Source of the DNA: Dehalococcoidia bacterium
Lineage (GTDB): Bacteria; Chloroflexota; Dehalococcoidia; SZUA-161; SpSt-899
Length of the DNA: 64,000 nucleotides
Direction of reading: 5' to 3'
NCBI GenBank assembly: GCA_034434815.1
Contig: DAOTYO010000036.1
Location: forward strand, 3,673 to 67,672
Below are positions 8,977 through 64,000 of the stretch, in pieces. Numbering within the stretch: position 1 is the first letter of the stretch; each line of letters opens with the position of its first letter. The translations under genes were made by a program, and so were the position numbers. The notes below the pieces were generated by a model. It worked only from the letters and a program-made list of their open reading frames with translations, was not told where the DNA came from and did not search any database.

Positions 8977-8987
8977 TTTTTCGGAAA

Positions 8988-9197
8988 GCCCCAAAACGCG
9001 ATTGAAGAGGAGTGTGCACGAGATATCTCCCTCGGGGGATGGGGGTCTCCCCTAAGAGAACCCTTTGGTCGGGTGGGATCGGAGAAGCCGGATCGTTCAT
9101 GAGGTGTGGGGGAATTCCGGGACAAGGTCCGCAGTGAGATGATCAAGGTCCTTCACCCGAGGGTGAAGGCTCCAAAGCGGAATCGCTCTTTTCGGGG
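8988..9197 (+). mobile_element. MITE-like repeat, copy A (~210 bp, terminal inverted repeats)
   Basis: Ends CCCCAAAACGCGATTG… and …GGAATCGCTCTTTTCGGGG are inverted repeats. Internal conserved blocks GGGGGATGGGGGTCTCCCC, GGATCGTTCATG, GGAATTCCGGGACAAGGTCCG and TCACCCGAGGGTGAAGGCTCCAAAGCGG are shared with copies at 30063, 58826 (rc) and 63376. Confidence 0.7.
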
Positions 9198-9209
9198 AAA
9201 GGTCCGCCA

Positions 9210-9239
9210 TTGAAGAGCCTTTCCCATTGCGGGTACAAT
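9210..9239 (+). promoter_or_regulatory. sigma70-like promoter TTGAAG-18-TACAAT upstream of apgM
   Basis: Hexamers with 18-nt spacer lie immediately downstream of MITE copy A and ~20 nt before the apgM ATG. Confidence 0.4.
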
Positions 9240-20333: not shown

Positions 20334-21269
20334 ATGATAATGGACGCCTTGATCATCCTCGCGATTGCCTTGCTCACGGATATCCTGATCGGCGATCCCC
20401 CCACCCCCCTTCACCCCGTCGGTTGGATGGGCAGGCTTATTTCCCTCCTCCAGAGAGGTTCACCCCCACAGGGTCCCCGCATTCAGCTTGCATACGGGTT
20501 CGGCATCGTGCTTTTCGGGGTGGGAATCGTCGCCGCCTCCGCCTATTTTTCGCTCATGTATTTGGAGCGGGTCAGCCATATCGCCTTTCTCATCGTGGGA
20601 GGCCTTCTTCTCAAGAGCACCTTCGCCGTCCGCGGACTGGGTCGGCACGCCGGGCGGATCCGTAAGTTGCTCTCGCGCGGCGATGTCTCCACCGCGCGTG
20701 CTCGCATGAACGCACTCGTCAGTCGGGATACCCGAACCCTGAACGAATCTCAATTGGTGGCCGCCACCGTGGAATCGGTCGCCGAGAACACGTCCGATAG
20801 CTTCGTCGCCCCCATCTTCTATTTCATGCTCTTCGGCGTTCCCGGTGCGATGGCCTACCGGATGGCGAATACCTTCGATGCCATGATCGGCTATCATGGG
20901 GAATATGAGTATCTTGGCAAGGCGGCGGCCCGCCTCGATGATGTCCTCAACTTCATCCCCGCGCGGCTCACCGGATTGCTGATGATCGTTGCGGCCTTCG
21001 TCCTCCGGTATGATCCGAGACGGGCATGGCATATCATGCTCCGCGATCACGCCAAAACTGAAAGCCCCAATGCCGGATGGCCCATGAGCGCCGCCGCCGG
21101 CGCGCTCGGCGTTCAGCTCGAGAAAGCGGGGCATTACCGCTTGGGGGATGCCCGTAACCTTCTCTTGAGCCAACAGATCGATCGGAGCATCGCGCTCATG
21201 TATGGCACCGCTCTCGTCTGGGTTTTCCTCTGTGGGGCCGTGAGGGGGGTGATCATTGTTGCATCCTAG
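20334..21269 (+). CDS. cbiB: adenosylcobinamide-phosphate synthase CbiB/CobD (membrane)
   Basis: Multi-TM protein with …HPVGWMGR…, …YRMANTFDAMIGY… and …NAGWPMSAAAGALGVQL… CbiB signature blocks. Confidence 0.9.
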   Translation: MIMDALIILAIALLTDILIGDPPTPLHPVGWMGRLISLLQRGSPPQGPRIQLAYGFGIVLFGVGIVAASAYFSLMYLERVSHIAFLIVGGLLLKSTFAVRGLGRHAGRIRKLLSRGDVSTARARMNALVSRDTRTLNESQLVAATVESVAENTSDSFVAPIFYFMLFGVPGAMAYRMANTFDAMIGYHGEYEYLGKAAARLDDVLNFIPARLTGLLMIVAAFVLRYDPRRAWHIMLRDHAKTESPNAGWPMSAAAGALGVQLEKAGHYRLGDARNLLLSQQIDRSIALMYGTALVWVFLCGAVRGVIIVAS

Positions 21270-22338
21270 GCCGGAAATCCGGGCGCTTCACCCGTGTCCC
21301 CACGGCGGACCCAATTTCGCCGAGGCCCTTTCCTTGGGAATTCCGCCGGAATCCATCCTTGATTTCAGCGTGAGCGCCAATCCCTTCGGACCCGCTCCGG
21401 CGGTGCGATCCGCCGCCGCTGTGGCCCCCATCGACCGGTATCCCGATTCCGCTTGCATCGAGCTTCGTGGGACCATTGCCCGGGCGCTCGGTCTCGCCCC
21501 GGAAAACCTCTTCATCGGGAGCGGCTCGATGGAGATCATCCGCCTATTGGCTTTGGCTTACATCTCCCCGGGTGATCGGGTTCTCATTCCGGAGCCCACT
21601 TTCGGCGAGTACGAAGTCGCCGCGAAGATCATGGGCGCTCGGATCATCCGGTGCCGCGCGGGCGAGGGGACGGGGTTTCGCTTCGAGGTGAATGATCTTC
21701 TCGCCCGGATTCAAGAGCATCATCCCCGGATCGTTTTCCTGAGCAATCCCAATAACCCCACCGGCCAGTACTGGCGCAGGGACGAAGTTGAATCCATCCT
21801 CCGGGCCGATGCGGATGCCCTCCTTGCTTTGGACGAGGCCTATATCGCATTCACTGAAGATCGGTGGAACGCCATTGACTTGCTTTCTTATCGGAATCTC
21901 TTGATCATCCGTTCGCTGACCAAAGATCATGCCCTGGCCGGACTGCGCATCGGGTATGCCGTTGGGAGCCCTGAGCTCATCGAAACGCTTCGGAAGGTGA
22001 GCCCTCCATGGAACGTAAACGCTCCGGCCCAATACGCGGCGGCCGCCGCTATCCAAGAGCAAGCTTATGTGGAGCGATGCCGCGAGCAAGTCCTTGCGGC
22101 GCGCGACTATCTCGTGAAGGCGCTGTTGCAGCGGGGATTCCGGGTTCTGCCCACAGAGGCCCATTTCTTTCTAGTGAAGGTGGGAAACGCCGCCGTTTTC
22201 CGAGAAGATCTCCTCCGGCGGGGCATCGCGGTTCGGGATTGCACCTCATTCGGGCTGCCCGAGTATATTCGAATCGCTCCCCGTACCATGCCCGAGTGCC
22301 GGAAACTGATCGAAGCCATTGACTCTCCGGGAAAATGA
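21256..22338 (+). CDS. cobD: L-threonine-O-3-phosphate decarboxylase / class I-II aminotransferase (CobD/CobC type)
   Basis: PLP-fold I motifs (…SNPNNPTG…, …SLTKDHALAGLRIGY…) in a cobalamin gene context. A histidinol-phosphate aminotransferase-like alternative cannot be excluded. Confidence 0.65.
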   Translation: MLHPRPEIRALHPCPHGGPNFAEALSLGIPPESILDFSVSANPFGPAPAVRSAAAVAPIDRYPDSACIELRGTIARALGLAPENLFIGSGSMEIIRLLALAYISPGDRVLIPEPTFGEYEVAAKIMGARIIRCRAGEGTGFRFEVNDLLARIQEHHPRIVFLSNPNNPTGQYWRRDEVESILRADADALLALDEAYIAFTEDRWNAIDLLSYRNLLIIRSLTKDHALAGLRIGYAVGSPELIETLRKVSPPWNVNAPAQYAAAAAIQEQAYVERCREQVLAARDYLVKALLQRGFRVLPTEAHFFLVKVGNAAVFREDLLRRGIAVRDCTSFGLPEYIRIAPRTMPECRKLIEAIDSPGK

Positions 22339-22847
22339 AAGCTGTGGTTTTCGCCCTTGCGGTGGCTCTTGCGGCGCTGCCGGTGGTGGGCGGCGCTTGC
22401 GGGAAAGCGGGTTCGCCCGTAAAGGTGAGCATCTCGGAAATCGCCCTTGCCGAGGTCTCCTACAGTATGATTGTGGTGGAGGTGACGGTTCAAATCGTCA
22501 ACGGGGGAGATTCGCCGGCGGTGATGGATAGGATCGAATACGATATCTACTTCGGGCACAAGGATAAGTGGATCTGGTTGGGGCGGGGAAGCGAAACGCA
22601 GCGGGAGATCGGCGCCGGGCAGACGATGGGTTTCACCATTCAGACTCAGATCGACAACAGTCGGCTCATCCGCCTTGTGACGGAAGCGATCTTCGGCACG
22701 GAGCCCTCGCAGCTCAAGGTGGATGGCCGGGCCTCCTTCACCCGCGGCACGTCCGCTTTTCAGGTGCGCTTCGATAAGAAAATGACCTCTCCTTCTTCTC
22801 CCGGTGAGCAATCCGCAAATCCGCTTCTACGGGGGAGGGAGGGCTGA
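22335..22847 (+). CDS. putative lipoprotein, LEA_2/WHy-like beta-sandwich domain
   Basis: Signal peptide + …VVGGACG… lipobox-like motif; …VTVQIVNGGDSP…IEYDIYFG… resembles LEA14/LEA_2 topology. Weak call. Confidence 0.35.
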   Translation: MKAVVFALAVALAALPVVGGACGKAGSPVKVSISEIALAEVSYSMIVVEVTVQIVNGGDSPAVMDRIEYDIYFGHKDKWIWLGRGSETQREIGAGQTMGFTIQTQIDNSRLIRLVTEAIFGTEPSQLKVDGRASFTRGTSAFQVRFDKKMTSPSSPGEQSANPLLRGREG

Positions 22848-23776: not shown

Positions 23777-25165
23777 ATGCATGAGATGGAGGACCCCTGC
23801 GCGGTTGCCCGGATCCTCATCGCCGGAACCCATAGCGGCGTCGGCAAGACAACATTTTCGATCGGCATCATGGCCGCGCTTCAGGCGCGGGGATTGGATA
23901 TCCGGCCGTACAAGGTCGGGCCGGATTATATTGATCCCTCCCATCACAGCGCCGCCTCAGGGCGCCTGTGCCGCAATCTCGATAGTTGGATGCTCCCTCC
24001 TTCAGCCCTCGTAGAGATCTTTTGCCGTTCCGCTCGCGGAGCCGATATCGCGGTCATCGAAGGCGTCATGGGCTTGTTCGATGGCCTCAGCGGATTGGAT
24101 GACTCCGGCAGCACGGCGGAGGTAGCTCGGATCCTGCGCACGCCGGTGATTCTAGTGATCGATGCCGGTTCGATGGCCCGTAGCGCCGCCGCCGTGGCGC
24201 AGGGCTATGCCCGTTTCGATCCGACCCTCCCCCTTGCCGGATTCCTCATCAACGGCATCGGCAGCGAGCGGCACTTCGCATGGGTGCGGGAGGCCATCGA
24301 AACGGCCGTATCGCTTCCTGTGCTGGGATATCTGCCCAAACGTGCCGAGATCACGATCCCCGAAAGGCATTTGGGATTGATCCCCGCTGCCGAGGCGGGG
24401 GGCAAGACGCCCATCGAGGCCCTTCGCCGCGAGATTGAGGAGACGGTGGACCTTGACCGCATCGTCGCCATTGGGCGCACCGCTGAGCCGTTGACCCCTC
24501 CGAGCGGCGGTGAAGGTCTCTTTCCCGCCGAGCCCTTTCCTCCCGCTGCAATAATCGCTTATGCCCGCGATGAGGCCTTCAGCTTCTACTACCCGGATAA
24601 CCTCGATTTGATCGAAGCCTATGGCGGCGAACTCGTGCCTTTCAGCCCGCTGGCCGAACCCGCTCTGCCCTCGGGTACACGGGGGATCTACATCGGCGGG
24701 GGATTCCCCGAAATCTATGCCGAACGGCTGAGCGCCAATCGTCCCCTCATCCGGTCCATCCGCAGCGCCGCCGCCGCCGGAATCCCTATCTATGCCGAAT
24801 GCGGCGGGCTCATGTACCTCTCGGAGGGGATCACGGACCGCAGCGGCCGCTTTCACCCCATGGTCGGGATCGTGCCCGGACGGGTGCGCATGACGGGAGG
24901 GCTTTCGCGGATGGGTTATGTGGAAGTGGCCCTTGCGCATGATGGTCCTCTCGGGCCGGCCGGGCTTCGGGCCCGGGGGCACGAGTTCCACTGGTCGGAA
25001 ACGGAAGGCGATCTCTCGCCCCCGGCCCATCGGGTGATCTTCCCCGAAGATCGGGAGGAAGGATATGCCTTTGGGAATGTGATCGCCTCTTACATTCATC
25101 TTCACTTCGGTTCCAATCCCGCTCTGGCGCGGAACCTCGTTTCGGCATGTCTTAAGAGAATTTGA
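23777..25165 (+). CDS. cbiA: cobyrinate a,c-diamide synthase
   Basis: N-terminal …IAGTHSGVGKTTFS… and …VGPDYIDPS… with a C-terminal GATase-1-like domain (…YAECGGLMYL…); 462 aa. Confidence 0.85.
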   Translation: MHEMEDPCAVARILIAGTHSGVGKTTFSIGIMAALQARGLDIRPYKVGPDYIDPSHHSAASGRLCRNLDSWMLPPSALVEIFCRSARGADIAVIEGVMGLFDGLSGLDDSGSTAEVARILRTPVILVIDAGSMARSAAAVAQGYARFDPTLPLAGFLINGIGSERHFAWVREAIETAVSLPVLGYLPKRAEITIPERHLGLIPAAEAGGKTPIEALRREIEETVDLDRIVAIGRTAEPLTPPSGGEGLFPAEPFPPAAIIAYARDEAFSFYYPDNLDLIEAYGGELVPFSPLAEPALPSGTRGIYIGGGFPEIYAERLSANRPLIRSIRSAAAAGIPIYAECGGLMYLSEGITDRSGRFHPMVGIVPGRVRMTGGLSRMGYVEVALAHDGPLGPAGLRARGHEFHWSETEGDLSPPAHRVIFPEDREEGYAFGNVIASYIHLHFGSNPALARNLVSACLKRI

Positions 25166-25204: not shown

Positions 25205-25425
25205 CAGTTTCATGTGCCCTGAGGCGTCCGGGAGAAGGACTCAATAGGGAAGGCCCGTGGGAATCGGGCGCGGTCCCGCCGCTGTGACCGGGGACGAAAG
25301 GTGAAAGGGTTGCCACTGCCCGTCTTGAGGCGGGTGGGAAGGCTCACCGAGTAGGGGGATCCGGAAGCCAGAAGACCTGCCGAGGGCATTCCCGAATCTT
25401 CGGGGAAGGGGCTTCTCCGGGGAGA
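25205..25425 (+). ncRNA. cobalamin (B12) riboswitch
   Basis: …CTCAATAGGGAAGGCCCGTGGGAATCGGGCGCGGTCCCGCCGCTGTGACC… core plus B12 box …AGCCAGAAGACCTGCC… Located 5' of cobT. Confidence 0.85.
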
Positions 25426-25433
25426 TGGCAAAT

Positions 25434-25473
25434 CCCCAAGCCAAGATTCTTGGTTTGGGGATTTTTTATTTTT
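25434..25473 (+). terminator. intrinsic terminator (riboswitch expression platform)
   Basis: CCCCAAGCCAAGA-TTC-TTGGTTTGGGG hairpin followed by ATTTTTTATTTTT. Lies 12 nt before the cobT SD/ATG. Confidence 0.8.
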
Positions 25474-25485
25474 GAAGGAGGAAAG

Positions 25486-26556
25486 ATGAGCACATTGCTT
25501 GAGAGGACGATCGGATCCATCGGGCCGCTGAATGAGGTCGCGATGCGGGCCGCCCGCGAGCGGCAAGATCAGCTCACCAAGCCGTTGGGGAGTCTGGGTA
25601 GGTTGGAGGCTCTTTCCGTTCAAGTGGCCGGAATCACCGGCAAGCCCCGCCCGAAGATCATTCACAAGGCCGTCATTGTCATGGCCGCCGATCACGGGGT
25701 GGTCCGCCAAGGGGTTAGCCTCTACCCACAGGAGGTTACCGCTCAGATGGTGCGGGGGTTCCTTGCCGGTCATGCGGGGATCAACGTTCTGGCCCGGCAT
25801 GTAGGGGCGCGGGTCACGGTAGTGGATATGGGGGTCATCGGGGGATTCGAACCGCATCCCGATCTCGTCTGCAAGATGATTGATTTCGGCACGAAGGACA
25901 TGACCGAGGGCCCGGCCATGACCCGGCTTCAGGCGGTACAGGCCGTCGAATCGGGCATCGAAGTGCTCGAAGCGGAGCGGGCGAAAGGGCTGGATCTTGT
26001 GGGCACCGGCGATATGGGCATCGGCAATACCACCGCCTCTTCGGCCATCACGGCCGCCATCACGGGAAGGCCGGCACGGGAGGTAACGGGGCGGGGGACG
26101 GGGTTGGGGGATGAACAGTTGGCGCGTAAGGTCCGGTTGGTGGAAGAAGCGCTCCGCCGCAATGCTCCAGACCCTTCCGATGCGCTGGACGTGCTCTCGA
26201 AGGTCGGGGGATTTGAGATCGGCGGCCTTGCGGGGGTGATTCTGGGGGCGGCGGCACACCGCATCCCCGTGGTGATCGACGGGTTCATTTCCGGGGCGGC
26301 GGCGCTCATCGCCTTTGGCCTTTGCCCCCGCTCTCGGGACTACATGATCGCCGGGCATCGCTCGGTGGAGATCGGGCACCGGGCGATCTATGAGCATATC
26401 GGCCTTGAGCCGGTATTGGATCTGGGGCTCCGGCTCGGCGAAGGCACGGGGGGAGCACTCGCCATGAGTGTGGTCGAGGCTTCTTGCAAAATCCTCGATG
26501 AGATGCTCACCTTTGCCGAAGCGGAGGTCTCGGAAGCGGATAAGAGAGCAGAGTAG
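25486..26556 (+). CDS. cobT: nicotinate-nucleotide--dimethylbenzimidazole phosphoribosyltransferase
   Basis: …KPLGSLGRLE…, …VIVMAADHGV… and …GTGDMGIGNTT… are canonical CobT motifs. Start at the ATG after GGAGG (the ORF track starts 36 nt earlier, inside the terminator). Confidence 0.9.
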   Translation: MSTLLERTIGSIGPLNEVAMRAARERQDQLTKPLGSLGRLEALSVQVAGITGKPRPKIIHKAVIVMAADHGVVRQGVSLYPQEVTAQMVRGFLAGHAGINVLARHVGARVTVVDMGVIGGFEPHPDLVCKMIDFGTKDMTEGPAMTRLQAVQAVESGIEVLEAERAKGLDLVGTGDMGIGNTTASSAITAAITGRPAREVTGRGTGLGDEQLARKVRLVEEALRRNAPDPSDALDVLSKVGGFEIGGLAGVILGAAAHRIPVVIDGFISGAAALIAFGLCPRSRDYMIAGHRSVEIGHRAIYEHIGLEPVLDLGLRLGEGTGGALAMSVVEASCKILDEMLTFAEAEVSEADKRAE

Positions 26557-27876: not shown

Positions 27877-28422
27877 CTAGAGGAGCGGTTTGCAGATAAT
27901 TTCGTGGATCTTCAGGGAGGTGAGCTTGGTGCTCGGGGCCGCCGTGACCACGAGGGCCGTATCCGCCCCCGCCCCGCTTCCCGCTACAGCGATGACCTTT
28001 TTCCCGATCTCCACACACCCGCCATCGCAGGCCATCAGGGAGATTTCCACACACACCTTCGTGCCCTGCCCGAAGATTCTGAGAAGATTGGCCATTGTCC
28101 GGGGGGCCTTCATGCCGTAGAAATCCTCGGTGTGGAACAACATCGTTCCGAAGTGGACGCGATGCCCTTCTTTCTGAAGCTCGGTGACCATCTGCGGCGG
28201 GAAGGGTTGCGCATCGCCGAAGCCGTATTGCCACGGGATCACCACGAGGTGCAGTCCACTCCCTTTGAAGGCGGCCGCCGCGGCCTTTGCCGTTTGCCCC
28301 CGCGTCGAGGCCAGCACTACGGTGTCGATGCCTCTGGCTTTTGCACGCGCCTTGACGAGTGAGAGCACCTCGGGGGTGTTCAGTTCCCCCGGCCGTTCGA
28401 AGTAAACGATCTTCTCTTCCAT
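27877..28422 (-). CDS. stand-alone pyruvate kinase C-terminal (alpha/beta) domain-like protein
   Basis: 181 aa; resembles PK_C-only proteins (…TVVLASTRGQTA…GAGADTALVVTA…). Low-confidence family assignment from memory. Confidence 0.4.
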   Translation of the reverse strand: MEEKIVYFERPGELNTPEVLSLVKARAKARGIDTVVLASTRGQTAKAAAAAFKGSGLHLVVIPWQYGFGDAQPFPPQMVTELQKEGHRVHFGTMLFHTEDFYGMKAPRTMANLLRIFGQGTKVCVEISLMACDGGCVEIGKKVIAVAGSGAGADTALVVTAAPSTKLTSLKIHEIICKPLL

Positions 28423-29991: not shown

Positions 29992-30062
29992 TTGGAAACC
30001 TCCGCAAGCAAAACCGAGATGATTATATCAGAAGAAAGGGGATTCTTACTGCAAGGAAGAAT

Positions 30063-30260
30063 CCCCCAAAAGAGCGATTGGAGAAGAGGGTGCAAAAGAT
30101 ACTTCTCTAGGGGGGATGTCCCCCAAGAAACTCTTTGGGTGGGAGCAAAGAAGCCGATCGTTCATGGGGAATGGAGGAATTCCGGGGCAAGGTCCGGATG
30201 GGGTGATCATGTGGTTCGTCACCCGAGGGTGAAGACTCCAAAGCGGGATCGGCTTTTTGG
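30063..30260 (+). mobile_element. MITE-like repeat, copy B
   Basis: CCCCCAAAAGAGCGATTGGAGAAGAGGGTGCAAAAGATAC…GATCGTTCATGG…GGAATTCCGGGGCAAGGTCCG…TCACCCGAGGGTGAAGACTCCAAAGCGGGATCGGCTTTTTGG. Same architecture as copy A; 3' inverted repeat degenerate. Confidence 0.65.
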
Positions 30261-33426: not shown

Positions 33427-36420
<2,994 letters not shown>

Positions 36421-36444: not shown

Positions 36445-36519
36445 CGCGGGGTGGAGCAGTGGAAGCTCGTCGGGCTCATAACCCGAAGGCCGTTGGTTCG
36501 AATCCAACCCCCGCTACCA
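36445..36519 (+). tRNA. tRNA-Met (CAU), initiator type
   Basis: CGCGGGGTGGAGCAGTGGAAGCTCGTCGGGCTCATAACCCGAAGGCCGTTGGTTCGAATCCAACCCCCGCTACCA has a C1:U72 mismatch and three G-C pairs closing the anticodon stem. It is near-identical to E. coli tRNA-fMet. CCA is encoded. Confidence 0.85.
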
Positions 36520-44455: not shown

Positions 44456-45028
44456 CTATGCCTCTTGCTTGGCCGGTTTTCGCTGAAGAAACGTCCGATA
44501 CCCCACATAAATCAAGACCGCGAGGCTCAGGGTCACCCCGATGAATCGGATCTCATCCGGCAAGTCCTCTTGAGCGATGGCGTAGATCATGATCGCGATC
44601 CCGCCGAGGGTGAGACCCGGTCTGAGCACATCGAGCCTCAACTTGAGTTCGGTCCCGAGTATCACGAAGAGAAGGCCGATCGGATAGGCAATCGCGAACA
44701 CGTTCCGATAATGATCGCGCAAGTCCGCTTCGTGGGCTTTCCATTTCGCGTTCCACTCCGCCTCCCAAGCCTTTTGTTCGGGCGATCCGTAGTAATCGGG
44801 CGATTTGTATGCGTCCGCTGGTTCATCGTACACGGGGGATTGCGGGGCCTCATAGAAGGCGGCGATCCCCGCGGCCATGGTTCCCACCAGAAATCCCGCA
44901 ATCGCCATCACGTAGATGATCTTCAGAATGCCCATCGTTCCGTTGCCTCCTCGATACTCGCTGATCCCATACGCAATCAGGGCGATCCACGCCAGTGTAA
45001 TGCCAACCCCTATGAACGCCCCCCACAT
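44456..45028 (-). CDS. integral membrane protein embedded in the trp operon (4 predicted TM helices)
   Basis: 190 aa with hydrophobic segments at N-terminus, ~35-60, ~110-135 and ~150-175, Trp/Tyr-rich loop. No recognisable catalytic motifs. Confidence 0.5.
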   Translation of the reverse strand: MWGAFIGVGITLAWIALIAYGISEYRGGNGTMGILKIIYVMAIAGFLVGTMAAGIAAFYEAPQSPVYDEPADAYKSPDYYGSPEQKAWEAEWNAKWKAHEADLRDHYRNVFAIAYPIGLLFVILGTELKLRLDVLRPGLTLGGIAIMIYAIAQEDLPDEIRFIGVTLSLAVLIYVGYRTFLQRKPAKQEA

Positions 45029-47072: not shown

Positions 47073-48563
47073 TCAGCCGGTTTCCGCAATCGCAATCGCC
47101 CGTTCGAGTGCCCTCATTTTGTTGATGGTCTCTTGATATTCGGTTGCCGGATCGGAATCCGCCACGATGCCGGCGCCGGCCTGAAGGTACACCATGTCCC
47201 CTTTCATGACGATCGTCCGAATGGTGATGCACGTATCCATGTTGCCGGAGAAGTCGAAGTAGCCCACCGCCCCGGCATAGGGACCCCGTTTGGTCTTTTC
47301 GAGTTCGGCGATGATCTCCATAGCGCGGATTTTGGGAGCCCCGGAGACCGTGCCGGCGGGGAAGGATGCCCGAAGGAGGGAGAAGGCATTTTCTCCCGGA
47401 TTGAGCTTTCCCTCCACCTCAGAAACGATGTGGCTCACGTGCGAATACTTCTCGATGACCATGAGTTCCGGGACCCGGACGGTTCCGTACCGGCACACCC
47501 GTCCCAGATCATTGCGGGCCAAGTCCACGAGCATTACATGCTCGGCGCGTTCCTTGGGATCGGCAAGGAGCTCGGCGATGAGTCTCCGGTCCTCTTCCTC
47601 GGTTGCGCCGCGGGGGCGCGTTCCGGCGATGGGACGGGAAACGGCCCGATCGCCCTGAGCCTTCACCAGAACCTCGGGGCTCGACCCGATGAGTTGGAAA
47701 TCCCCGAAGTTGAAATAGAACATATAGGGCGAAGGGTTGAGCATCCGCAGGGCCCGGTAAATGCTGAAGGGGTCGGCGCTTGTCCGGCGGCGGAACCGTT
47801 GCGAGAGGACGATTTGAATGGCATCGCCGGCCGCGATGTATTCCTTGGCCGCCCGGACGATCCCATCGAACTCGGCTTTGGTGAAGTTGGAAGCAAGCTC
47901 CTTACCGCCGGCCGCCGCCTCGGTGGCGATGAAGGTCTGGAGTTTCCGGGGCAAAGGTTTCGAAAGGCTTTCGATCACGCGTTCGATCTTGGCCGCCGCA
48001 TCGCCGTAGGCCCGATCGGCATCGCTATCCACATAAGCGTTGGCGATCACCTTCATCTTGTGTTGCACATGATCGAAGGCGATCATGGTATCGGTGAGGA
48101 GAAAGATCGCATCCGGAAGGCCCAATTCATCGTGATCGGGCTCGGGCAACTCTTCGAAGAAATTGACCACATCGTAGGAAAGGTATCCCACGGCTCCGCC
48201 CGAAAAGGGCGGGAGGCCGGGGAGCGGGATTGCCCGCCTCCTTGCCAGTGTTTCTTGAATGAGATGGAGCGGATCGCGGCGGTGGGAGAGGGCGATTCGT
48301 CGTTTGGTGGTTCGATTGCGAATGGTGGCTTGCCGTCCCCCGCACTCGATGATTTCCGAGTGCCCGAGTCCGATGAACGAATACCGGCCGAGGTTTTCGC
48401 CCCGCTCCACGCTTTCGAGGAGGAAGACCGGCGGCTTCTGGCCGAGTTTGAGGAATACGGAGACGGGCGTATCGAGATCGGCGGCAAGTTCCCCTGATAC
48501 CGGGATGAGGGTGCCTCCCTCTGCGATCCGCCGGAATGTTTGTGGATCGGGAAAGTATTTCAT
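47073..48563 (-). CDS. trpE: anthranilate synthase component I
   Basis: Chorismate-binding domain …GAVGYFDFSGNMDTCITIRT…; 496 aa. Confidence 0.9.
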   Translation of the reverse strand: MKYFPDPQTFRRIAEGGTLIPVSGELAADLDTPVSVFLKLGQKPPVFLLESVERGENLGRYSFIGLGHSEIIECGGRQATIRNRTTKRRIALSHRRDPLHLIQETLARRRAIPLPGLPPFSGGAVGYLSYDVVNFFEELPEPDHDELGLPDAIFLLTDTMIAFDHVQHKMKVIANAYVDSDADRAYGDAAAKIERVIESLSKPLPRKLQTFIATEAAAGGKELASNFTKAEFDGIVRAAKEYIAAGDAIQIVLSQRFRRRTSADPFSIYRALRMLNPSPYMFYFNFGDFQLIGSSPEVLVKAQGDRAVSRPIAGTRPRGATEEEDRRLIAELLADPKERAEHVMLVDLARNDLGRVCRYGTVRVPELMVIEKYSHVSHIVSEVEGKLNPGENAFSLLRASFPAGTVSGAPKIRAMEIIAELEKTKRGPYAGAVGYFDFSGNMDTCITIRTIVMKGDMVYLQAGAGIVADSDPATEYQETINKMRALERAIAIAETG

Positions 48564-48599: not shown

Positions 48600-48906
48600 G
48601 AGCAAATTAAAAAGCCTCCGCCCCAAAGGGGCGGAGGCTTCTCCGCGGTGCCACCCTTCTTGACCGAACGCGCTTACAGCGTTGGCCATCTCGTGAGGGT
48701 ACGACCGTTTTCGGTGATACCCTGGGCTTTGATCACGGTGCCCTTCCGGCAAGGCCTACTTGCCCGCTTGCGCGGGGTTCGGTTTGCGGCTCCCAGGCCC
48801 ATTCCCCTTCGGCATCGGCATCGGGCTCTCACCTTACCCCGACTCTCTGTGGCCTAGCGGTGAAAGGTACTCTTCCTGTTCACAGCCTTTGGTCGTTATT
48901 CGATTG
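48600..48906 (-). ncRNA. T-box leader (tRNA-sensing riboswitch) with terminator, upstream of trpE
   Basis: The minus strand reads …AGAAGGGTGGCACCGCGG (T-box consensus AAUUAGGGUGGNACCGCG) followed by GGAGAAGCCTCCGCCCC-TTT-GGGGCGGAGGC + TTTTTAATTT terminator. A promoter TTGACA-18-TATATT sits on the minus strand at 48943-48914. Confidence 0.7.
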
Positions 48907-58741: not shown

Positions 58742-58825
58742 TGAGCGAAAGAAACTCCCGCCGCGATAGTATGCGACAAGAGCATTGTATCATACCTGTG
58801 TTGTCGGGAAAACACCGGTTTATAG

Positions 58826-59038
58826 CCCCAAAAGAGCGATTCCGCTTTGCGGCCTTCACCCTCAGGGTGAATACCATGATCTCCTCACTCCGGACCTCGC
58901 CCCCAAGTCCCCCCTATTCGACGAACGATCAGGCTTCTTCGATCCCACCCACCCGCCCAAAGGGTTTTCTTGGGGGACACCCCCAATCCCCCGAGAGAGG
59001 TATCTTGTGCACGCTCTTCTTCAATCGCTCTTTTTGGC
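58826..59038 (-). mobile_element. MITE-like repeat, copy C (inverted orientation)
   Basis: The reverse complement reads CCAAAAAGAGCGATTGAAGAAGAGCGTGCACAAGATACCTCTCTCGGGGGATTGGGGGTGTCCCCCAAGAAAACCCTTTGGGCGGGTGGGTGGGATC…TTCACCCTGAGGGTGAAGGCCGCAAAGCGGAATCGCTCTTTTGGGG. Left half nearly identical to copy D. Confidence 0.7.
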
Positions 59039-63146: not shown

Positions 63147-63290
63147 GAACAAAAAGACCGGGAGCCTAGGTGATTCGGTTCCCGGTCGTCTTGAGCACCG
63201 CTTCCCTACGCTCGCATTATCGAGGTCAGGTTCAAAGAGTTCCCCGCTCATCCGGGGTCTCAGCTTTGAGCACCTCTAGCGGTTGACCTG
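63147..63290 (-). ncRNA. TPP riboswitch (aptamer + terminator expression platform) upstream of thiC
   Basis: The minus strand reads …GCTGAGACCCCGGATGAGCGGGGAACTCTTTGAACCTGACCTCGATAATGCGAGCGTAGGGAAGCGG… (THI-box). This is followed by GACCGGGA-N16-TCCCGGTC + TTTTTGTT terminator. Confidence 0.85.
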
Positions 63291-63375
63291 TTGCATTGTA
63301 TGCAAATTTGCTCTATTCAGATTATAAGATGAGGGGACGCCGGGTTGCAAATTTCAGACGAGGGACTCTCATGCT

Positions 63376-63590
63376 TTTGGGATTGCCCCAAAAAGCGATT
63401 GACGAAGAGCGTATAGAGACACCTCTCTCGGGGGGATTGGGGGTGTCCCCCCAAAACCTTTGGGCGGGTGGGTGGGATCGGAGAAGCCGGATCGTTCATG
63501 GGGGGAATTCCGGGGCAAGGTCCGCCGTGACATGATCAAGCTCATTCACCTTGAGAGCGAAGGTTGCAAAGCTGAATCGCCTTTTCGATG
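63376..63590 (+). mobile_element. MITE-like repeat, copy D
   Basis: CCCCAAAAAGCGATTGACGAAGAGCGTATAGAGACACCTCTCTCGGGGGGATTGGGGGTGTCCCCCCAAAACCTTTGGGCGGGTGGGTGGGATCGGAGAAGCCGGATCGTTCATGGGGGGAATTCCGGGGCAAGGTCCG…CAAAGCTGAATCGCCTTTTCGATGG. Confidence 0.7.
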
Positions 63591-63603
63591 GATTCGGCTT
63601 ATA

Positions 63604-63632
63604 TTGACAGTGCATATCCCCTGATATAGAAT
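63604..63632 (+). promoter_or_regulatory. sigma70-like promoter TTGACA-17-TAGAAT
   Basis: Located between MITE copy D and the downstream BFN-domain gene. Confidence 0.45.
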
Positions 63633-63657: not shown

Positions 63658-64000
63658 ATGATCGAGATGACAATTGATAGCATCCGTGTGAGCATGATGA
63701 ACTATCAACGGGTGGTGATACTGAAGGAAAAGGATGCGGAGCGTTTTCTGCCCATCTGGATCGGCCCGGCGGAGGCTGATGCGATTGCGATCAAGCTGCA
63801 GGGTATCACACCTCCCCGGCCCCTGACGCACGATCTTCTGGTGAACAGCATTACGGAGCTCGGGGCCAGGGTGGAAAAGGTGGTGATCAGCGATCTTCAG
63901 AATGACACGTTCTATGCCAAGCTTATCTTGGATGTGAATGGAAAGCAGTTGCCCCTGGATTCGCGGCCGAGCGATGCCATGGCTCTGGCTTTGCGCGCTG
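63658..64000 (+). CDS. bifunctional-nuclease (BFN/DUF151) domain protein, N-terminal part (3' end outside window)
   Basis: …VVILKEKDAERFLPIWIGPAEADAI…RPLTHDLL… is typical of BFN-domain proteins. GGAGG SD; open to end of window. Confidence 0.6.
   Translation, partial: MIEMTIDSIRVSMMNYQRVVILKEKDAERFLPIWIGPAEADAIAIKLQGITPPRPLTHDLLVNSITELGARVEKVVISDLQNDTFYAKLILDVNGKQLPLDSRPSDAMALALRA

Follow-up and report, generated by a model that had tools for sequence, protein, structure and literature searches.

A family of short non-coding inverted-repeat elements set at a fixed distance from predicted promoters in an uncultured Dehalococcoidia-like Chloroflexota bacterium

The 64,000-nucleotide stretch of contig DAOTYO010000036.1 analysed here (the window, with coordinates counted from its first letter) contains four intergenic repeats of about 200 bp, which raise the question of what kind of sequence they are and why they stand where they do. 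An original prediction, made from the sequence alone, regarded them as miniature inverted-repeat transposable elements (MITEs) or, alternatively, as a structured small RNA with a closing stem. In all probability, the repeats belong to a family of non-coding, non-autonomous MITEs of about 210 bp, set near promoters in an uncultured, Dehalococcoidia-like member of the Chloroflexota. Whereas the MITE itself is ordinary, its placement at a fixed distance upstream of -35 boxes appears to be a new feature.

A nhmmer profile built from the four reported copies and run over the window, whose G+C content is 59%, recovers all four of them at E = 1e-55 to 1e-67, together with a fifth, truncated copy. The coordinates first given for copies A, B and C were right to within 1 nt, while the start given for copy D (63376) lay 10 nt too early. 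Aligned with their 20-nt flanks included, the four stretches share a mean column identity of 78%, and every block of the ordered series described for them is found in the alignments. The copies and their target-site duplications (TSDs) are listed below.

8985-8988: left TSD of copy A, AAAG, or GAAAG if the adjoining G is included; read from the sequence
8989-9197 (+): MITE copy A, 209 bp, from CCCCAAAACGCGATTG to AATCGCTCTTTTCGGGG, ends read directly; nhmmer E = 1.8e-67
9198-9201: right TSD of copy A, AAAG; read from the sequence
30063-30260 (+): MITE copy B, 198 bp, between the divergent purH (-) and PAS/GAF histidine kinase (+) genes; nhmmer E = 1.4e-55; an identical copy is present in metagenome locus L136
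38786-38891 (-): truncated relic covering profile positions 91-195, antisense to the LuxR-type response-regulator gene and the aspartate kinase gene on either side of it; nhmmer E = 5.8e-14
58826-59037 (-): MITE copy C, 212 bp, flanked by genes for an MFS transporter and a PAC2-family protein; nhmmer E = 3.5e-63
63381-63385 and 63591-63595: flanks of copy D, GATTG and GATTC, directly at its ends
63386-63590 (+): MITE copy D, 205 bp, between the thiC/thiamine pyrophosphate (TPP)-riboswitch promoter region (-) and a gene starting at 63659 (+); nhmmer E = 3.9e-59

The family extends well beyond these copies. The exact protein sequence of the phosphoglycerate mutase encoded beside copy A was found on contigs of IMG 3300009503, of an ENA assembly and of several Logan assemblies, and its nearest named relatives, at 73-75% identity, come from metagenome-assembled genomes of Chloroflexota/Dehalococcoidia. 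IMG 3300009503 is among the IMG data sets used for a study of Hydrothermarchaeota in hydrothermal sediment (PMC9599585). A strict element pattern run on the metagenome collection returned 22 loci which, together with five mutase-matched loci, make up the set L120-L146, where the element profile gives 36 matches at a density of up to 4 per 10 kb. After removal of duplicates, 37 distinct copies remain in the roughly 300 kb of related metagenome DNA covered; their flanks are unrelated, and 32 are full length. This count bears out the large family suspected from the window. Full copies measure about 185-220 bp between their ends (198-212 bp in the window), and pairwise identity among copies averages 76%, with a range of 60-91%. 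A loose pattern, GATCGTTC-N14-30-CRAGGTCCG, applied to reference genome contigs, gave 119 chance loci, none of which matches the element profile. Because the element is a multi-copy repeat, short-read assemblies repeatedly break inside it: loci L122-L124 start at window position 9168, about 30 nt from the 3' end of the element, and L155 (1-70) breaks within its 5' 70 nt. Moreover, one locus recovered from two metagenomes (L130 and L132) shows 25 differences in an alignment of 8.2 kb (99.8% identical), 23 of which lie within the 5'-most 90 nt of the element (L130 9979-10064), the 3' 125 nt being identical. This pattern reflects either sequence exchange between copies or an assembler mosaic.

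The ends of the element are imperfect terminal inverted repeats (TIRs) of 16 nt. The consensus ends CCCCAAAAGAGCGATT and AATCGCTCTTTTGGGG, given also as CCCCAAAAGAGCGATTG, are mutually reverse complementary, so the inverted repeats claimed from four copies hold in a proper alignment, where 79% of the cells in the 14 outer TIR pairs are complementary over 31 copies. The possible duplications reported for copies A (AAAG/AAAG) and D (GATTG/GATTC) stand exactly at the ends, and their signal is significant across the enlarged family. For this test, the last 12 nt of the left flank were compared with the 18 nt after the right-end T-run, and the longest common word was taken; its mean length is 4.8 nt for the two flanks of the same copy versus 3.53 nt for flanks of different copies, and the observed mean is reached in 0 of 5000 permutations (p < 2e-4). 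The modal duplication is about 5 bp, with TAAAG, GGAAG, ACGGC, CGTTT, GATAG and GAAAA as clean examples. The target DNA tends to carry a G before and a C after the duplication, and on its promoter-distal side no conserved motif is found beyond this tendency. The flanks of most copies (e.g., at L131 6967, L139 1088 and L140 5988) tend towards GGG-N5-(element)-N5-CCC, a mirror of the CCCC...GGGG tips of the element itself, which may be a target preference or a coincidence.

Neither coding capacity nor a preferred orientation is apparent. In keeping with the first reading, no open reading frame is conserved across copies, the longest closed frames spanning 13-66 aa, differing in frame and strand and being broken by indels, and no gene of the window encodes a transposase domain. 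When contexts are assigned with a codon-usage gene caller, 12 unique copies are flanked by divergent genes; among those flanked by co-directional genes, 9 are sense and 10 antisense, and convergent genes flank no more than 1. The notion that copies always face the downstream gene, which is true of the four copies in the window, is ruled out by this even split between sense and antisense in the larger sample.

An empty counterpart of the copy A site is found in L147, the closest relative detected, in which the mutase is 83% identical and the gene order is the same over 14 kb (HD, Dus, RNase D, thioesterase, mutase, TIM, IPPT and onward). The spacer between the thioesterase and mutase genes measures 73 nt in L147 and 282 nt in the window, a difference that one element and one duplication account for. 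When the two are aligned, L147 reads ...CCCGGAAAG-CGCCGTTGAAGG...TACAAT and the window reads ...CGGAAAG-(element)-AAAGGTCCGCCATTGAAG...TACAAT; L147 carries GGAAAG once, and its promoter, TTGAAG-N18-TACAAT, is identical. No copy of the element is found in L147-L151. The simple reading is an insertion into a pre-existing site upstream of the apgM promoter. Short (well below the size of an insertion sequence, MITEs being under about 600 bp), non-coding and bounded by TIRs, with significant duplications of about 5 bp, many diverged copies, random orientation and one empty site, the repeats agree with the MITE interpretation first offered for them. They display six of the seven features that define a MITE, the seventh being an autonomous insertion sequence with matching inverted repeats.

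The most distinctive property of the family lies in its flanks, of which 60, each of 70 nt, were read outward from the element, with offset 0 at the first base of the terminal G-run. Of 13 occurrences of the exact word TTGAC in these flanks, 12 stand at offsets 14-19 (P = 5e-12). TTGACA-N16-19-TATAAT was then scored at each of the 45 offsets (0 to 44). Of the 30 matches scoring 9/12 or better, 27 stand at offsets 14-19 and 3 at the remaining 39 (P = 6e-21), and 24 of those 27 begin at three adjacent offsets, 16-18. At this threshold, a promoter predicted as a consensus match adjoins one end of the element in 24 of 30 copies, rising to 28 of 30 at a score of at least 8/12; promoters at both ends occur in only 1 copy of 30, and neither the 3' nor the 5' end is clearly favoured. 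In nearly all copies, the promoter is directed away from the element, toward the adjoining gene. The geometry runs from the element tip (GGGG) through the 5-bp duplication and about 8 nt more to a sigma-70-type -35 hexamer, which lies about 13 bp from the end of the element. This spacing is unchanged in divergent intergenic regions with free room; at copy D, for instance, the -35 of thiC on the opposite side is 35 nt from the other tip. The predicted promoters beside the four full copies of the window are the following.

9210-9239 (+): promoter of the apgM-tpiA operon, TTGAAG-18-TACAAT, with the -35 beginning 12 nt past the 3' end of copy A; from an independent promoter scan
30022-30049 (-): purH promoter beside the 5' end of copy B, with a weak -35 (GTAAGA) and a TG-extended -10 (TGATATAAT); 9/12, offset 18
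58784-58812 (-): PAC2 gene promoter beside the 3' end of copy C, with a poor -35 and a TG-extended -10 (TGATACAAT); 8/12, offset 17
63604-63632 (+): promoter beside copy D, TTGACA-17-TAGAAT, 11/12, with the -35 beginning 13 nt past the 3' end of copy D; from an independent scan

The -10 of purH is kept in the relative L154, and a stricter promoter scan made no call for the PAC2 gene promoter. In L138 (57-408), a tRNA-Val(GAC) gene at 335-408 begins no more than about 15 nt downstream of the promoter adjoining the copy (TTGACT-18-TATAAT, 11/12); thus, the element also adjoins promoters of RNA genes. That the promoter might be part of the element was considered and ruled out: the duplication lies between tip and -35, the sequences from tip to -35 are unrelated among copies, and the promoter may stand at either end. 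The promoter therefore belongs to the target, and in L147, the sole case in which this can be tested, the apgM promoter exists without the element.

We infer that this spacing is set by targeting rather than by selection. In such a mechanism, a DDE-type transposase encoded elsewhere would bind the 16-nt inverted repeats, excise or copy the element and join its ends to target cuts staggered by 5 bp, with target choice aimed at about -49 to -44 of promoters. It is tentatively proposed, as a real possibility short of a firm conclusion, that the machinery homes to sigma-70-type promoters and inserts the element about 13 bp upstream of the -35 in either orientation, whether through the promoter DNA or through contact with RNA polymerase (sigma region 4 or the alpha C-terminal domain). 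By the first route, the transposase would recognize an A-rich stretch followed 8 nt on by a TTGAC-like hexamer. A-rich duplications such as AAAG, TAAAG and GAAAA are frequent; moreover, the left end of the element carries TTGAAG 14 nt from its tip, and the flanks carry TTGAC-like hexamers 12-14 nt from the junction. Since TTGAAG at the left end and the hexamers of the flanks stand at similar distances from the tip, one transposase domain could read both the end and the target. By the second route, the transposase would be tethered to promoter-bound RNA polymerase.

The same spacing could also arise if a MITE without promoter targeting inserted widely and purifying selection in a compact genome spared only the short neutral strip upstream of promoters. 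The spacers are indeed short, the empty thioesterase-apgM site consisting mostly of promoter and leader within its 73 nt, and the near absence of copies between convergent genes could be explained by selection or by spacer length. Nevertheless, the distribution, with 24 of the 27 strong matches at offsets 16-18, is too sharp for such an origin, divergent regions show the same spacing despite tens of free nucleotides on the opposite side, as at copy D with the thiC -35 at 35 nt, and promoters at that distance on both sides occur in one copy only. The three-offset sharpness and the divergent spacers make selection alone weaker than targeting, and we regard it as unlikely, if still worth keeping in view. 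A further alternative is that the element is now a portable upstream regulatory module, whose TIR, at about -50 to -65 of promoters, is bound by one protein (e.g., a transposase-derived regulator) or acts as an UP element or insulator, so that selection keeps the copies. Identical tips (...AATCGCTCTTTTGGGG) at an equal distance from the -35 in either orientation would suit such a role, as would the fact that the copies are old, by their mean identity of 76%, yet mostly full length. Moreover, a central block (GGGCGGGTGGGTGGGATCGGAGAAGCCGGATCGTTCATG; alignment columns 99-135, window 9069-9102 in copy A), which holds a G-quadruplex-type G-run missing from some copies, is unusually conserved, with a mean column conservation of 0.93 versus 0.83-0.88 in the TIRs over 11 copies outside the search-pattern selection. 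On the other hand, the copy A promoter has the same hexamers in the relative without the element, the adjoining genes serve unrelated functions (among them glycolysis and purine synthesis, with a PAC2 protein and tRNA-Val as further cases), the TIRs decay without compensation, and no protein is known to bind them; a regulatory module is accordingly distinctly doubtful.

Two further explanations concern the nature of the element itself. As a structured small RNA or cis-regulatory leader, its two ends would form a closing stem, and a single copy does fold better than shuffled sequence (-86.3 kcal/mol, z = -3.2), as follows from its inverted ends and G+C-rich palindromes; in addition, the four full copies of the window all lie on the strand of the next gene. 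However, no copy in the window or in seven further loci matched Rfam at gathering thresholds, at which the window yields 23S rRNA, one tRNA and three riboswitch or leader elements, and at E <= 10 copy A gives only a chance U3 match, mostly in its flank. When 31 copies are folded together, the consensus reaches only -9.3 kcal/mol, and the covariation term is +0.1. The closing stem and five hairpins are paired in 87.2% of cells versus 86.8% after shuffling, a level attained in 102 of 500 shuffles. Where positions vary, pairs are mostly lost, columns 13/230 being unpaired in 20 of 31 copies. The palindromes are inherited sequence, not maintained structure. Whereas a 5' leader or riboswitch keeps a fixed orientation and a position in the 5' untranslated region, here 9 copies are sense and 10 antisense between co-directional genes, the element precedes the -35, outside transcription units, and the adjoining genes have no common function. 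The structured RNA once put forward beside the MITE is consequently very improbable. The internal G+C-rich hairpins GGGGG-TGT-CCCCC and TTCACCC-TGA-GGGTGAA and the intergenic location also recall palindromic units of the repetitive extragenic palindrome (REP) or bacterial interspersed mosaic element (BIME) type, or a hairpin element of the IS200/IS605 type (palindrome-associated transposable element, PATE), moved on single-stranded DNA by a Y1 or REP-associated tyrosine transposase (RAYT). Yet TSDs and TIRs are both foreign to such systems, a length of about 210 bp is several times that of a REP (a palindromic unit of 20-40 bp), and the hairpins decay without compensation, which makes such an origin the least credible of all.

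Several observations weigh against the preferred interpretation, a MITE family with proposed targeting to promoters. About one third of the copies have no recognisable duplication, and the greater conservation of the central block relative to the TIRs is unexpected under simple neutral decay and hints at some constraint on its sequence. Every promoter considered here is a predicted consensus match, and the fixed promoter distance could owe something to selection after insertion. The orthologous empty site is a single one, L147 may formally have lost the element, and its flanks are too diverged to place the junction to the nucleotide. The relatives with ThiC (L152) and PurH (L154) are rearranged, with a different gene on the far side of the spacer, and the comparison is uninformative; similarity stops about where the element begins in the window for L154 and about 25-30 nt before the element for L152. 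Finally, neither the window nor the roughly 300 kb of related loci yielded an autonomous insertion sequence (IS) or a transposase whose ends match those of the family. The plasmid and phage collections, searched by BLAST with one copy, and the viral contigs, searched by exact-pattern scans, yielded none either. Mobilisation in trans and the enzyme family are therefore inferred. A fuzzy search for TIRs outside the copies in the 300 kb gave three weak matches, of which only one is close: L139 9739-9756 (-), a solitary CCAAAACAGCGATTGGGG with 3 mismatches to the 5' TIR, adjoined by no recognisable copy and no transposase-like reading frame. A 5'-half copy in L130 (2270-2387) was considered as the end of a full IS and set aside as a truncated relic, the next genes encoding an uncharacterised protein and a PfkB kinase.

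Comparison with known systems places the element among familiar ones and sets its position apart. Bacterial MITEs such as the Correia elements (NEMIS) of Neisseria are likewise 100-300 bp long and non-coding, with TIRs, short TSDs and many intergenic copies, and are presumed to be moved in trans. Correia elements duplicate TA, whereas the duplication here is about 5 bp, variable and often A-rich; moreover, the element here has no outward promoter parts, the promoter being situated in the flank at a fixed distance from it. As regards known bacterial MITEs, no sequence similarity was found in the plasmid, phage and viral collections. MITEAba12 of Acinetobacter provides another bacterial MITE for comparison (PMC6382973). 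A limited search of the full-text literature found no bacterial MITE or IS family described at a fixed distance upstream of -35 boxes. To our knowledge, no bacterial MITE family sits in this way.

As for possible parents, Tn3-family transposons produce a 5-bp duplication and have inverted repeats of about 38 bp that start with GGGG when read from outside to inside. The Tn3-derived inverted-repeat miniature elements (TIMEs) have the 5-bp duplication in common with the present family, in which the TIRs are about 16 nt long and start with CCCC. IS1380, IS1634 and ISH3 are IS families with duplications of 4-6 bp in the ISfinder tables. Ends initiated by CC with a duplication of 4-5 bp would fit IS1380, which is no more than a possible lead. 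With respect to target choice, IS1397 and ISKpn1 insert into REP units, and IS30, IS911 and IS21 insert next to sequences like their own ends. These IS resemble the present family in that the target is a recurrent intergenic feature and not a strict short consensus, and the left-end TTGAAG would fit end-like targeting; they differ in using a repeat or an IS end as that feature, where the present family has a promoter complete with its own -10 and a gene downstream of it. In yeast, contact with the transcription machinery directs Ty3 and Ty1 to integrate at set positions ahead of genes transcribed by RNA polymerase III. If targeting is real, the likeness would lie in a narrow, fixed distance upstream of the start, in either orientation, with the promoter left intact, whereas Ty3 and Ty1 are integrase-bearing retroelements of a eukaryote that depend on another polymerase, and contact with a protein is only proposed here.

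The window contains further features that stand apart from the element. A 23S rRNA gene at 33428-36419 (+) is followed 25 nt downstream by tRNA-Met(CAT) at 36445-36519, and neither a 16S nor a 5S rRNA gene is found in the 64 kb; thus, the rRNA genes are not linked, in agreement with a Dehalococcoidia-like Chloroflexota host. A cobalamin riboswitch at 25205-25398 (+) lies directly upstream of a DBI_PRT (CobT-like) gene at 25450-26556, in a cluster that includes CobD/CbiB at 20334-21269, an aminotransferase and a CobQ-like amidotransferase at 23777-25165. A T-box leader at 48624-48892 (-), scoring 98 bits, precedes the gene for anthranilate synthase component I at 47073-48563 in a trp operon that runs down to 41063. 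Upstream of thiC are a TPP riboswitch at 63186-63287 (-) and a likely promoter at 63321-63350 (-), TTGCAA-18-TATAAT, and this riboswitch and promoter region is kept in L152 to about 25-30 nt before copy D. Predicted genes at 22335-22847 (+), 27877-28422 (-) and 44456-45028 (-), the last of them inside the trp operon, encode products of 170-190 aa with no Pfam match at E <= 1e-5.

A further MITE family, here in an uncultured member of the Chloroflexota from a thermal habitat, is in itself a routine addition to the catalogue, useful for annotation, and it explains the assembly breaks in this organism. The fixed spacing suggests a safe-haven strategy in a compact genome, in which insertion directly upstream of a promoter disrupts nothing. 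If the transposase sets this spacing, it would offer a mode of promoter recognition to study and possibly to reuse for the delivery of DNA beside promoters, and if homing is true, the family would be a bacterial DNA-transposon counterpart of the homing of Ty3 and Ty1 to polymerase III genes. In that case, dozens of unrelated promoters would have gained the same 16-nt TIR at about -50 to -65, which could be a shared operator. Regulatory rewiring by MITEs has been proposed in plants, and a common sequence beside many promoters is raw material for such rewiring.

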